Shown here: piece after piece, positions 1-12,854 of the stretch
Numbering within the stretch: position 1 is the first letter of the stretch
Layout of the letters: the number at the start of each line of letters is the position of its first letter
NCBI GenBank assembly: GCA_042584585.1
Contig: JBHOSQ010000004.1
Span: forward strand, 1-64,000
DNA length: 64,000 bases
Source of the DNA: an archaeon
Lineage (GTDB): Archaea; B1Sed10-29; WALL01
Direction of reading: 5' to 3'
The notes under the pieces: model-generated
Databases searched by the model: none
Seen by the model: only the letters and a program-made list of their open reading frames with translations
What the model was told of the DNA's origin: nothing
Translations under genes and position numbers: made by a program

Positions 1-372
1 CGGAAGAGCTTTGTAATCACCAGCGGGAAAAAAGAGCTGGAATTCGACGGCTTGATGAAGGAGTTTGCGAAGGGCGACAAGGACTTTCCGCGTAAGTACA
101 TCGTGTACCGCGACCTGCGGGGGCGGGGATACACAGTCAAGACCGGGTTCAAGTTCGGCACGCACTACCGTGTGTACGGCCGGGGCGTAAGGCCGGGGGA
201 AGCACACGCGATTTGGCTTGTGCACGCCGTGCCCGAAGAGTTCAAGTGCGACTTTCACACTTTTTCTGGCAAGGTACGCCTAGCACAAAACGTGCGCAAG
301 AAAATGATTTACGCGCTCGTCGACAAGGAAGGCGACATCACTTACTACCGGATTGAGAGGTTCAGCCCGTGA
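1..372 (+). CDS. endA: tRNA-splicing endonuclease catalytic subunit (5'-partial)
   Basis: Frame is open from base 1. Motifs VYRDLRGRGYTVKTGFKFGTHYRVY, HAIWLV and RLAQNVRKK carry the Y/H/K catalytic triad. Confidence 0.92.
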   Translation, partial: RKSFVITSGKKELEFDGLMKEFAKGDKDFPRKYIVYRDLRGRGYTVKTGFKFGTHYRVYGRGVRPGEAHAIWLVHAVPEEFKCDFHTFSGKVRLAQNVRKKMIYALVDKEGDITYYRIERFSP

Positions 373-10275: not shown

Positions 10276-11736
10276 TCACAGCCCCAGCAGCCCGACGAGC
10301 CAGTCAATCAGCATCCCGATGACGCCGCGCTCAGTGGGGTCGATGCCCGTGACCAGGCCGGTGGAAGGAGACTTCGTGGGCTCCGGTGTGGATGTTGGCT
10401 CTGGAGTTGCGGTCGGCTCGGGCCCCACAGGCGGCTCGGGCAAGTTCGGGTTCGGCGTTGGCACCAGTTCTTCGTTGAGCACCAAAACAGCCGTGTCTTT
10501 GCCGACTGTCACGAGCTCAAGCTCGTAGCCGTCGTTGGAAAGCTTGTCGCCGACGTCCAGCTCCCTCATGACGTCGTTGACGAACATGGTTGCGGACGTG
10601 CCGTCCGCCGACATCAAGAACACGTTGTACGCGTCCTCGAAGCTCGCTGCCCGCTTGTTCCGAGTTATGTCGAGCGCGATAAGCTGGCCGACTGTGCCCG
10701 CCTGCTTTTTGGATGCATAGACTGTTCCCGAGCAGCTGTCGCCGTCGGACTCAATGGCTTCGGCAAAGAACGCCCAGCCGCTTTCGATGGAGAGCTCTTG
10801 CGCACCGATGCCGTTCGTCGAGTAGCTGTCGCCGTGCCTCAATTGGGCGCGGTCGCCGGCGAGTGCCTTCTGGAACCCGAGGTATGAGCCGTCTTCCAGC
10901 TCGCCGTAAGGCTTTCCAATACAGTCAAGCTCGAGCCTTCCGCGAGTGGGCTCGATTATTTTGGTGATCATGAGGGAAATTGATGCGGGGTCGTTGTCAC
11001 TGTCGGTGACCCGAATCGCGTAGTCCTCGTCGAGCGGGATGGCGTCTCCAGTGGGGGGGACGAAAAAGGTTTCGCCGCGCCAGATGATTGCTTTGGAGGG
11101 GTTTTCGGGGAGCAGCTTTATTGTTTTGCCGTCTACTTTTGCTGCCGCGCGCTCGCCCCAGCGTAGGGTGAATTCGTTGCTAAGGCCGATTGTCCGCTTC
11201 TCGAGTGGGATGAGCTCGATGGTTGCGGTGGTCGTGCCGTCGGCGTGGCTGCCGGACTTCGACACCAAGTTGATTAGGTGGGTGTCGCCCACGTATTGCA
11301 TGGGCTCGGAAGTGTCAAGGAGTATTTCTTCCCCGTCAATGCTGAACCTGGCGGACGGGTAGGTGGACTTCATCATGAGGATTTCTTTGTCCTTTATTTC
11401 CAGTGCGCTTTTGTCGCACGTGTTCATCTTGACTTCTTCGTTTTCGCTTTCGGAAAAGAATTTCGATGCTCGGAAAATGCACCAGTCAGGAGTCACTTCG
11501 ATTGCGTAGATGAGCCAGTCGTCGGTGACTTCGTAGTAGTCGCCGAAGCGCATGTCGTCGCCGTCGATTTCCAGCTCGATGTCGCTGTAGTGGTCTCCGC
11601 TTTCGATGAGCTCGAAGACGTCGTTGTCGAGGCTCTTGGTGTCGTTGACGTAGAGGGTGAACTCGTTGTCGCACTCTGCGGCTATCGCTAGCGACAAAAG
11701 TAGTGCAATAATTAACACACCTCGCTTCATTGGCAT
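10276..11736 (-). CDS. Secreted acidic surface/S-layer-like protein with PT-rich linker
   Basis: Signal peptide, repeated beta modules, PEPTATPEPT linker, amphipathic C-terminus IGMLIDWLVGLLGL. Confidence 0.7.
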   Translation of the reverse strand: MPMKRGVLIIALLLSLAIAAECDNEFTLYVNDTKSLDNDVFELIESGDHYSDIELEIDGDDMRFGDYYEVTDDWLIYAIEVTPDWCIFRASKFFSESENEEVKMNTCDKSALEIKDKEILMMKSTYPSARFSIDGEEILLDTSEPMQYVGDTHLINLVSKSGSHADGTTTATIELIPLEKRTIGLSNEFTLRWGERAAAKVDGKTIKLLPENPSKAIIWRGETFFVPPTGDAIPLDEDYAIRVTDSDNDPASISLMITKIIEPTRGRLELDCIGKPYGELEDGSYLGFQKALAGDRAQLRHGDSYSTNGIGAQELSIESGWAFFAEAIESDGDSCSGTVYASKKQAGTVGQLIALDITRNKRAASFEDAYNVFLMSADGTSATMFVNDVMRELDVGDKLSNDGYELELVTVGKDTAVLVLNEELVPTPNPNLPEPPVGPEPTATPEPTSTPEPTKSPSTGLVTGIDPTERGVIGMLIDWLVGLLGL

Positions 11737-11769
11737 AATTTAGAATTATTGCATATAAAAAAGGGTAGG

Positions 11770-11901
11770 TGGGGTCGTAGGGATTTGAACCCTAATATAG
11801 TGGTATCCTCGCTCCAAAGTGCAATCATTGGCCCGAAGGCCTCAGCATACCACTTAAAGAACCCTGGAGCCACTCAGGATGCCAAGTTACCTCACGACCC
11901 C
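11770..11901 (-). tRNA. tRNA-Trp(CCA) with 59-nt intron (11805-11863) at 37/38
   Basis: Acceptor GGGGTCG/CGACCCC-A, anticodon stem AGTGG/CCACT with loop CT-CCA-G, T-arm TAGGG-TTCAAAT-CCCTA. Confidence 0.93.
11805..11863 (-). ncRNA. Intron-encoded box C/D guide RNA for pre-tRNA-Trp
   Basis: AGTGGTAT-G-CTGA pairs with the 3' exon junction, and N+5 lands on C39. TTTGGAGC pairs with the anticodon loop. K-turn CTGA-GGCC-TTCG-GGCC-AAT-GA. Confidence 0.8.
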
Positions 11902-11968
11902 GTGAGAAGAATTGTTTTGTTGAACTGGATTTATTAAGGTGCCTCCGGGGGAGACGCTGCCGGCCTAT

Positions 11969-11997
11969 GGGGGGATGCCAATTGGCACCCCCCAAGT
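11969..11997. repeat. G6-GCCAATTGGC-C6-AAGT palindrome, copy 1
   Basis: GGGGGGATGCCAATTGGCACCCCCCAAGT; related copy at 45252-45285. Confidence 0.6.
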
Positions 11998-12013
11998 CCT
12001 TTTTTCTCCCAAG

Positions 12014-12170
12014 CGGACGCGGAGGGATTTGAACCCTCGATTCCTGGCTGGCTCCTCGGTTGTTCATAACCTCATTGCCACCGAAGTGGCTCAGCATAGA
12101 GGAACAGTCATCGCCTAAGGGCGTAACCGAATAGGAGGCCAGTGCCTTATCCAAACTAGGCTACGCGTCC
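12014..12170 (-). tRNA. tRNA-Arg(CCU) with 82-nt intron (12050-12131) at 37/38
   Basis: Acceptor GGACGCG/CGCGTCC-G, D-stem GCCT/AGGC, anticodon stem CTGGC/GCCAG with loop CT-CCT-A. Canonical BHB: CTCC/GGAG helix, TAT and CCA bulges, TCGGTT/AACCGA. Confidence 0.93.
12050..12131 (-). ncRNA. Candidate intron-encoded box C/D sRNA
   Basis: C-like GCGATGA, 13-nt spacer, D' CTGA, GCCAC-TTCG-GTGGC stem, C'-like ATGAGGT, spacer TATGAACAA, D-like CCGA. Confidence 0.7.
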
Positions 12171-12208
12171 ACGAGAACTGTTTTGTGTGTAACGTCTTTT
12201 ATATATAA

Positions 12209-12445
12209 ATGCCCTTAAGCATTGCCATGGAGCACTTTGCTGTTCTGCTTGGGTTCACGAGCTTCTTGCTGCTCGCTGCGACCGGGCAGACCCTAACATT
12301 CTCTTTCGCTGCCGGCGTCGCGGTACTAGTGATAGTGTCGGGAATACGGCTGCAGGAAACAAGAAAGAAAAAGCCGAAACCCACCAAGAAAAAGCCCCGA
12401 AAGCCGACTTCGGCGAAGCCGAAGTCAAAGACTAGGCGCAAGTAA
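12209..12445 (+). CDS. Small two-TM membrane protein with very basic tail
   Basis: Two hydrophobic segments, then KKKPKPTKKKPRKPTSAKPKSKTRRK; TATA element just upstream (start may be ATG 12227). Confidence 0.55.
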   Translation: MPLSIAMEHFAVLLGFTSFLLLAATGQTLTFSFAAGVAVLVIVSGIRLQETRKKKPKPTKKKPRKPTSAKPKSKTRRK

Positions 12446-12854
12446 GGGTGAGGAGGGGAGTTGTGAACCAACAATTTTTTCCCCATTGGCTGGGTGGGCC
12501 CGTTCCGCGTCCCCTCGGTTAGGTGTAGTTCGTGGAGACCATAACTATTCTCCAAATCAATTACGCGATAGTTGTATATATAGTTTTCTCATGGCTAGAC
12601 AAACGTCGACTGCAGTAACGTTTCTGCGATACGTTTGTTTAGTTATTTGCAGTTATTTTTTGGTGTGGCTTTAAAAAAAATTGTGGGCGAATGGAGATAA
12701 GTTTATATATTAGTTTTTAGAAAATATTTAGTCGCTTTGCTTCCTTTGGAAGTGAAGGGCAGTTTCTTGAGGAGATGGTGCGTGCCTCGTATTCTCCATG
12801 GCTGGGTGGGCTCCACCTCTCTTCGCCCTATTGCGGGTAGAGGGACGACCATAC

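Follow-up and report, generated by a model that had tools for sequence, protein, structure and literature searches.

The window, i.e. the whole stretch of 64,000 nucleotides (nt) analysed here, is the start of contig JBHOSQ010000004.1 in an archaeal genome assembly labelled G000 (1.02 Mb in 32 contigs, 84% complete). The genes for tRNA-Arg(CCU) and tRNA-Trp(CCA) lie close together on its minus strand, and both are interrupted by an intron. The 3′ part of a gene for the tRNA intron endonuclease EndA, with the catalytic domain, is at the very beginning of the window; the original prediction on this DNA had named EndA as encoded in the window. Our subject is the 82-nt intron of the tRNA-Arg(CCU) gene, which has the anatomy of a box C/D small RNA (sRNA). 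From its sequence and that of its relatives we conclude that its conserved function is probably to guide fibrillarin to the 2′-OH of the first uridine of the A loop of 23S rRNA, equivalent to U2552 in E. coli. ARAGORN in default mode reported no tRNA in the window, but with introns allowed it found both the tRNA-Arg and the tRNA-Trp. The former was placed at C4 c[12013,12170], with an 82-nt intron at gene position 40, i(40,82); these intron coordinates are identical to those that had been proposed from the letters alone.

The precursor of tRNA-Arg(CCU) can form a canonical bulge-helix-bulge (BHB), with two 3-nt bulges separated by a helix of 4 base pairs (bp) and the splice sites lying inside the bulges. 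The elements are in order the anticodon stem CUGGC/GCCAG (5 bp), the 3′ bulge CC-A, the central helix CUCC/GGAG, the 5′ bulge UA-U and the outer helix UCGGUU/AACCGA, where the hyphens mark the splice sites. The intron is thus a BHB substrate of the type cleaved by EndA. In the central helix C32-C35 of the anticodon loop are paired with GGAG (four pairs), and the intron sequence AGGAG is the complement of C32-U36 (CUCCU). Across the 11 orthologous introns described below 95% of the cells of the BHB alignment are paired, a level that none of 500 shuffles equalled, in keeping with the earlier description of the BHB as perfect. In the outer helix CCGA is paired with intron letters 2-5, and the pair 14:89 is CG in nine orthologues and UA in two, a compensatory double change at the letter that had been read as the G of the D box. 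Since CCGA becomes CCAA in step with the change of UCGG to UUGG, CCGA is a strand of the BHB helix and not the D box for which it had been taken; the invariant element is AGGA.

To collect orthologues, 41 related genomes were searched at the DNA level, the class was searched with a 15-mer pattern and one metagenome was scanned. This gave 11 distinct introns, nine from genomes and two from metagenome contigs. The metagenome scan had six matches, of which L181, L182 and L183 fall outside tRNAs and were dropped as chance, while L184 is identical to L006. Among the matches listed from the 15-mer scan of wider genome contigs, most were chance bacterial ones.

All 11 introns have a common layout, comprising a 5′ extension (5-16 nt), a stem strand of 3 nt, N-AUGA-CU(G/A), a spacer of 9-12 nt, NNGA, an interval of 3-16 nt, AUGAnnn, a spacer of 12 nt, AGGA and the second stem strand of 3 nt. 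The spacing between C′ and D is exactly 12 nt in every case; that between C and D′ is 9-12 nt, and is 10 nt in the window. The GA dinucleotides of AUGA and AGGA are both invariant. In the internal motif C′ position 6 is paired with D′ position 1 in 10 of the 11 orthologues. The stem of the D′-C′ hairpin is absent from some of them.

The terminal stem I (i.e. the two 3-nt strands) occurs as GGC/GCC, CUC/GAG, UUC/GAA and CCC/GGG. A total of 98.2% of its cells are paired, compared with 78.5% after shuffling and 36-66% for slid controls; there are 11 double-change cells, and none of 500 shuffles reached the observed level. The pair 28:96 is CG in five orthologues, GC in four, UA in one and another combination in one, and the pair 29:95 is UA in five, GC in four and CG in two. 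Two of the 3′ letters of this stem are unpaired in the BHB bulge, so the covariation must reflect a second fold, in which stem I is the predicted terminal stem of a C/D kink turn (k-turn). Box C/D k-turn geometry is well established, and the k-turn is predicted by applying it to the intron sequence. In the predicted k-turn the bulge is GAU ((G/A/U)AU in the orthologues), and sheared pairs would form between the GA of AUGA and that of AGGA. The helix would then continue with C-G and U-A pairs where canonical boxes have U.U and G-C. Note that the departures from the box consensus are complementary, with CU facing AG. Taken together the sequence data support the assignment of the intron as a complete two-motif box C/D sRNA.

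The two folds compete for the same nucleotides. In the BHB of the precursor the partners of the box D AGGA are U33-C35 in the anticodon loop and U2 of the intron. Since box D and the last three letters of the guide are base paired in the BHB, formation of the BHB and of the terminal k-turn should be mutually exclusive.

The D spacer has an extended match in rRNA. Its positions 2-11 form ten Watson-Crick pairs out of ten with nucleotides 2614-2623 of the large subunit (LSU) rRNA of G000 (GGUUGUUCAU), in the A loop of helix 92. The 10-mer of the guide occurs at just two sites in the 1.02-Mb assembly, i.e. the intron and the LSU gene. With AGGA as box D, the N+5 rule places spacer position 5 opposite LSU 2617, the second U of GGUU. 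In the original prediction the target of this spacer was UUGUUCAUAA, thought to resemble a CAU anticodon loop; that reading was two nt out of register, and GGUUGUUCAU in 23S rRNA is the actual match. It had also remarked that N+5 missed the expected nucleotide, but with AGGA as box D the N+5 nucleotide is the A-loop uridine. Its proposal to look for a target of at least 9 nt in a stable RNA is answered by the ten consecutive pairs with the A loop.

In all six genomes where both intron and LSU sequence were available, the A loop is the top match of the D spacer in the rRNA of the same genome, with ten of ten pairs and the same N+5 nucleotide. The guide contains a single variable position, and this is complementary to the target in each of the eight genomes for which both are known. 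Thus a guide with AUGAAC faces GUUCAU in the LSU of G000, G002 and G014, and a guide with GUGAAC faces GUUCAC in G004, G005, G006, G009 and G011. G014 belongs to another order and is the third lineage that fits this covariation. By contrast, no run of at least 8 nt was found between the guides and their own pre-tRNA in a scan of all 45 tRNAs. In agreement with the earlier claim, the spacers do not pair with the exons of their host, and the intron must therefore act in trans.

The LSU sequence around the site, AAGGGUGGGGUUGUUCAUCCAUCAAAGG...GAGCUGGGUUCAGAACG, is that of helix 92, whose five-letter loop UGUUC starts at LSU 2617. The first A-loop nucleotide is equated with E. coli U2552 in the text of PMC4644070. 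The offset from the A loop to the sarcin-ricin loop is 104 nt in G000, and is the same in the bacterial 23S record NZ_AP027616.1. It also agrees with the E. coli numbers C2551 and G2655. LSU 2617 is thus probably the equivalent of U2552, as judged from sequence and position.

Some other features of these rRNA sequences may be recorded. In ecoli_genomes, NZ_AP027616.1 and NZ_AP027888.1 are small circular records labelled as E. coli plasmids that consist of a 23S rRNA gene; the sequence of the former is unlike that of E. coli, including its start, and it is probably a contaminant or a misassembly. The 23S gene of G004 (C5:30306-31355) is split by ~1 kb a few nt 3′ of helix 92, probably by an rRNA intron. 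At LSU ~2560-2580 of G000 (C6), where the bacterial sequence is ..CACCUCGAUGUCGGCUC.., the sequence is CACAUCGCCGUCGGCUC, and that of G011 is ..CGCUGUC... We assume that these positions are highly conserved ones near the peptidyl-transferase centre, in which case they are seemingly substituted in G000 and G011.

The same guide is also found outside tRNA genes. A pattern comprising a C′-type box, five free letters, UGAACA(A/G)CC, three free letters and GA was run against 31 genomes of the phylum. It matched nine intron copies and four stand-alone copies, and its backwards control had no match. The stand-alone copies are canonical C/D sRNAs that read AUGAUGA, 12 nt including the same guide, and CUGA, CAGA or CCGA, followed by a second C′/guide/D unit and enclosed by terminal stems. 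That of G012 reads AUGAUGA-UAUGAACAACCA-CUGA-uga-AUGAUGA-CUGAACCCUGCA-CUGA, with complementary flanks. The CUGA, CAGA or CCGA of these sRNAs occupies the place of AGGA in the intron, and this fixes the register of box D. In G027 an intron-less tRNA-Arg(CCT) gene is encoded on the opposite strand, ~40 bp away from the sRNA.

The features of the window and the stand-alone homologues are collected in the table.

Table. Features of the tRNA-Arg(CCU) locus, related features of the window and stand-alone homologues of the guide
Feature	Position	Strand	Basis or remark
tRNA-Arg(CCU) gene	12170..12014	minus	Rfam tRNA 51.9 bits, 84 nt inserted after anticodon
Exon 1 of tRNA-Arg(CCU), last nt A37	12132..12170	minus	ARAGORN, Rfam tRNA
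Exon 2 of tRNA-Arg(CCU)	12014..12049	minus	ARAGORN, Rfam tRNA
82-nt intron, predicted box C/D sRNA	12050..12131	minus	Insertion site 37/38, canonical
Putative TATA-like promoter element TTTATATATAAAA	12197..12209	minus	Read from sequence; starts 39 nt upstream of tRNA 5′ end
5′ extension UUCGGUUACGCCCUUA	12116..12131	minus	nt 2-7 (UCGGUU) form outer BHB helix with AACCGA
Stem I 5′ strand GGC	12113..12115	minus	Pairs with final 3 intron nt
Box C region G-AUGA-CUG	12105..12112	minus	AUGA and CU kept in 11/11 orthologues
D′ guide UUCCUCUAUG, 10 nt	12095..12104	minus	Candidate targets 16S helix 45 and 23S sarcin-ricin loop
Box D′ CUGA	12091..12094	minus	Orthologues have CUGA, CCGA, UUGA or CGGA
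Hairpin GCCAC-UUCG-GUGGC plus A, between D′ and C′	12076..12090	minus	Read from sequence
Box C′ AUGAGGU	12069..12075	minus	AUGA invariant, 12 nt before AGGA, 11/11 orthologues
D guide UAUGAACAACCG, 12 nt	12057..12068	minus	Positions 2-11 complementary to 23S 2614-2623
Box D AGGA	12053..12056	minus	Invariant, 11/11 orthologues
Stem I 3′ strand GCC	12050..12052	minus	In BHB, G pairs with C32 and CC sits in 3′ bulge
tRNA-Trp(CCA)	11768..11901	minus	ARAGORN; 59-nt intron 11863..11805
EndA gene, 3′ part, tRNA intron endonuclease catalytic domain	1..372	plus	PF01974, 107 bits; cut by contig start
Stand-alone canonical C/D sRNAs with A-loop guide	G012 C4:18380-18402; G007 C12:14908-14930; G014 C3:105417-105439(-); G027 C35:1378-1400

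Within the order of the source genome (one order of the Iainarchaeota) the guide is present as the Arg intron in nine of 13 genomes and as a stand-alone sRNA in two (G012 and G007). The other two, G001 (89% complete) and G008 (66% complete), yielded neither the guide nor a tRNA-Arg(CCU) gene. G012, with the stand-alone form, keeps only a ~15-nt intron in its tRNA-Arg(CCU), so within the order the guide appears to be either intron-borne or stand-alone. The intron form was not seen in 18 other genomes of the class, nor in a sample of 370 further archaeal genomes. The wider pattern survey, covering 401 archaeal genomes, had nine matches in the own order and four non-tRNA matches, with eight matches for the backwards control.

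The target of the D′ spacer is less clear. The D′ guide of the window can form eight Watson-Crick and two G-U pairs within the spacer with CGUAGGGGAA in helix 45 of 16S rRNA, with N+5 at ~G1514. With AGAGGAA of the 23S sarcin-ricin loop it can form 7 bp within the spacer, or 10 when CUG of the C box is counted, with N+5 at ~G2661. In the related D′ guide of G004 the register on helix 45 is moved by one, and the D′ guides of other genera are unrelated; that of G011 can form 10 bp with GCGGUUUGCC in 23S rRNA, near the peptidyl-transferase centre. The D′ spacer may direct a second modification, for which helix 45 is the best-matching candidate and the sarcin-ricin loop the alternative.

The genome encodes the proteins of the pathway. 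Fibrillarin (249 bits) and Nop5 (217 bits) are adjacent genes in G000, and L7Ae (99 bits) and the ligase RtcB (546 bits) are present. The Nop5 homologue (C1:47775-48575) has only 266 amino acids, little more than the Nop domain (residues 39-261); the N-terminal part and the coiled coil that are usual in this protein were not found, and the open reading frame of 179 amino acids upstream has no Pfam match. RrmJ/FtsJ is a protein-only methyltransferase that forms Um2552 in bacteria and many archaea, and in yeast the A-loop site is handled by snR52 and Spb1. RrmJ/FtsJ was not found in G000, where the best score, 21.8 bits against a cut-off of 24.1, was given by a generic class I protein of the Methyltransf_23/25/11 type; all 14 genomes used as controls exceeded the cut-off. 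Within the class a strong match to FtsJ was obtained only in G018 (97 bits). This absence is class-wide, and is therefore not evidence that bears specifically on the intron. A crude scan of G000 with regular expressions for canonical stand-alone C/D sRNAs (TGATGA-N11-13-CTGA) gave six matches against 5.8 expected, which does not show that they are absent. The two intron-borne guides of the window may make up much of this genome's guide set.

The neighbouring tRNA-Trp intron provides a comparison. It contains the D′ guide AGUGGUAUG, CUGA, a hairpin, AUGAUUG, 12 nt, AGGA and U. AGUGGUAUG pairs with positions 38-44 of its own tRNA, with N+5 at position 39, and for the D guide (..UUUGGAGCG before AGGA; GGAGCG) N+5 is C34. 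The window's Trp intron is thus of the classic type, with guides for its own C34 and position 39. D′, the hairpin, C′ and the 3′ AGGA are kept in the Trp introns of the window (11805-11863, minus), G002 (C14:11166-11338) and G004 (C7:2732-2863). There is no recognisable C box in the 5′ part of these three introns, and that of G000 has no GA at all in this part.

The original prediction held that the Arg intron shares a cassette with the Trp intron about 190 bp away, by duplication or movement. The likeness is real, for a 27-nt local alignment (TATGCTGAG..CTTCGG..CAATGA) that covers D′ (CUGA), the UUCG hairpin and C′ (AAUGA) scores 30, compared with 12.5 +/- 2.2 for shuffled sequences (0 of 2000 as high), and the distance is 187 bp. 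The case for duplication or movement is weak, since the 27-nt core is found neither in the Arg intron of G002, which belongs to the same genus, nor in the Trp introns of G002 and G004, which have other hairpins and CCGA for CUGA. A recent copying of a cassette between the two introns is therefore not supported. An ancient common origin is possible, given that the two tRNAs have the anticodon loop CUCCN in common and that their genes are neighbouring ones in several genera.

Between the two tRNA genes, at 11969-11995, there is a GC-rich near-palindrome, GGGGGGTGCCAATTGGCATCCCCCC. Conserved in G002 as GGGGGGACGCCAATTGGCGTCCCCCC, with both arms changed, it could act as a terminator-like hairpin or as a binding site. 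Some of the orthologous tRNA-Arg(CCT) genes are multi-intron genes: those of G006 and G009 have extra insertions in the T arm, and those of G004 and G005 in the D-loop region.

The computed elements, namely the intron and its BHB, the conservation of boxes and spacers, the covariation of stem I and of the BHB, the complementarity and covariation of guide and target, and the protein genes, suggest a pathway in which excision before activity, circularisation, protein binding and methylation are steps that we infer. The tRNA gene would be transcribed from the TATA-like element, to which a promoter function is assigned from its position only. EndA would cleave the precursor at 37/38 and in the 3′ bulge. 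The exons would then be joined by RtcB, which would probably circularise the intron too; circular tRNA introns and circular C/D sRNAs are reported from other archaea in PMC7994747. In a circularised intron the 5′ extension would form the loop that closes stem I. The freed RNA would refold, with the 3-bp stem I (GGC/GCC), the terminal k-turn and an internal C′/D′ k-turn (CUGA, hairpin, AAUGAGGU), and L7Ae, Nop5 and fibrillarin would assemble on it. The D spacer would pair with GGUUGUUCAU of helix 92, leading to methylation of the nucleotide opposite spacer position 5, and the D′ spacer would guide a second site.

Several points weigh against this interpretation. The box C sequence AUGACUG fits RUGAUGA at four of seven positions and the box D sequence AGGA fits CUGA at two of four, so that Watson-Crick pairs stand where C/D k-turns usually have U.U; binding of L7Ae to an AUGACUG/AGGA motif is an assumption. 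Some D′ spacers are 9-10 nt in length, compared with the usual 12, and positions 1 and 12 of the D spacer are unpaired with the target. No Rfam sRNA or snoRNA family matches the intron (window positions 11500-12500, E up to 10). The E. coli numbering rests on the equation made in PMC4644070, on the local hairpin and on the 104-nt offset compared with E. coli numbers. A search of sequencing runs with the locus gave no RNA run, and four DNA runs contained 5-7% of its words. Lastly, because the assembly is 84% complete, the part that is not assembled could contain a gene for RrmJ or a second guide of the stand-alone kind.

The degenerate terminal boxes, some short D′ spacers and the incomplete assembly leave some room for the reading that the intron is a decaying relic, kept only for BHB splicing and forming no active ribonucleoprotein (RNP), with A-loop methylation absent or performed otherwise. 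We consider this unlikely. The guide is invariant across three families apart from one position, and that position changes together with the rRNA. Stem I takes no part in the BHB and yet covaries, and the C′-D spacing of 12 nt is constant. Moreover no second copy of the guide was found in these genomes, nor was RrmJ found. Slightly less probable still is a role in which the RNA, excised or unspliced, pairs with helix 92 as a chaperone or regulator and does not methylate it, or else directs methylation to G2553 instead of U2552. A duplex of 10 bp is by itself no proof of catalysis, and if GAGG were box D then N+5 would fall on G2553; according to PMC7994747 the A loop is modified at U2552 and/or G2553. 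Yet the full C/D and C′/D′ anatomy with 12-nt spacing is that of a methylation guide, the canonical boxes of the stand-alone homologues are in the AGGA register and so indicate U2552, and chaperone activity within the pre-tRNA would be opposed by the BHB, in which box D is paired along with the guide's 3′ end. The box assignment of the original prediction (C as GCGAUGA, D as CCGA, spacers of 13 and 9 nt and targets in trans such as the CAU anticodon loop) can be virtually dismissed, for while all of its quoted box and hairpin strings are present in the order given and CCGA retains the GA of a D box in nine of 11 orthologues, CCGA is CCAA in the other two in step with its BHB partner, the G of the GA in the proposed C box is lost in three of 11 (the invariant element being AUGA-CUG), the C′-D spacer would be only 9 nt and N+5 would hit U2555, the D-type box of the stand-alone homologues is at the AGGA site, and no tRNA target of at least 8 nt was found in its register.

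Guidance of methylation at the first A-loop uridine, the function that we favour for the Arg intron, can be compared with known systems. The pre-tRNA-Trp intron guide (Haloferax volcanii; Pyrococcus sR50) is, like the Arg intron, a C/D sRNA at position 37/38 with a BHB at its borders, from which EndA releases it. In both introns of the window GGAG supplies the GA of box D, because both host anticodon loops are CUCCN. The Trp intron guide acts on its own tRNA (PMC4090602, PMC7994747), whereas the Arg intron guides do not pair with the host tRNA and the conserved target is 23S rRNA. In the Arg intron, unlike the Trp type, box D is AGGA and is wholly within the BHB, so that the precursor itself should be inactive. 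The Trp intron is described as dispensable in Haloferax and as 'a unique example' in a review of 2014 (PMC4090602), and the Trp case alone is cited for intron-located guides in a review of 2021 (PMC7994747).

Elements of C/D type are reported in the tRNA-Met intron of Nanoarchaeum equitans (Randau 2012, PMC3491384). Like the Arg intron this is a non-Trp intron with C/D elements in a member of the DPANN, and the N. equitans RNA is described as stable and accumulating (PMC3491384). It belongs to another tRNA and another phylum, and we found no target named for it in PMC3491384, whereas for the Arg intron a target is indicated by complementarity and covariation across the order. In the literature searched, leaving aside subscription journals and supplements (the sRNA lists of PMC4644070, PMC6009581 and PMC3491384 could hold more), neither a C/D guide in a tRNA-Arg intron nor a tRNA-intron guide directed to rRNA was found to be reported. 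The earlier statement that none was known in tRNA-Arg agrees with this.

C/D guides for U2552 are predicted in five surveyed archaeal species in PMC4644070. Such stand-alone Um2552 guides (Dennis et al. 2015, PMC4644070; here G007, G012, G014 and G027) have the same target nucleotide as the Arg intron, and the stand-alone copies of the Iainarchaeia also match it in guide sequence and 12-nt spacing. Each is a gene of its own, with AUGAUGA and CUGA as canonical boxes and the A-loop guide in first place (D′), whereas in the Arg intron it is second (D) and the boxes are re-coded. RrmJ/FtsJ modifies the same nucleotide, but as a protein enzyme and not as an RNA-guided RNP. As read from the sequences, then, the type of RNP and its target are familiar, while the host intron, the rRNA target in trans, the box D encoded in the BHB and the conservation across the order would be new.

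The persistence of tRNA introns is an old open question, for which the Trp intron is the one textbook functional case. The Arg intron appears to carry the sole guide for one of a small number of rRNA modifications conserved in all domains, the protein enzyme seemingly being missing, and this offers a concrete and testable selective reason for the retention of an intron. The complement of the CCU anticodon loop has a double use, as BHB helix and as box D, which predicts that splicing precedes guiding. We suggest tentatively that the only Um2552 guide of the Iainarchaeales is locked in an inactive state in the tRNA-Arg(CCU) intron, that excision by EndA is the switch to the active RNP, and that the intron is retained by selection on the ribosome and not on the tRNA. 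If this is true, the Arg and Trp introns may hold the only two C/D guides of a genome that keeps fibrillarin, Nop5 and L7Ae, and tRNA splicing and the transcription of a single tRNA gene would be required for the peptidyl-transferase centre to mature. The occurrence of stand-alone and intron-borne forms in one order is also a natural system for the movement of C/D guides between genomic contexts.

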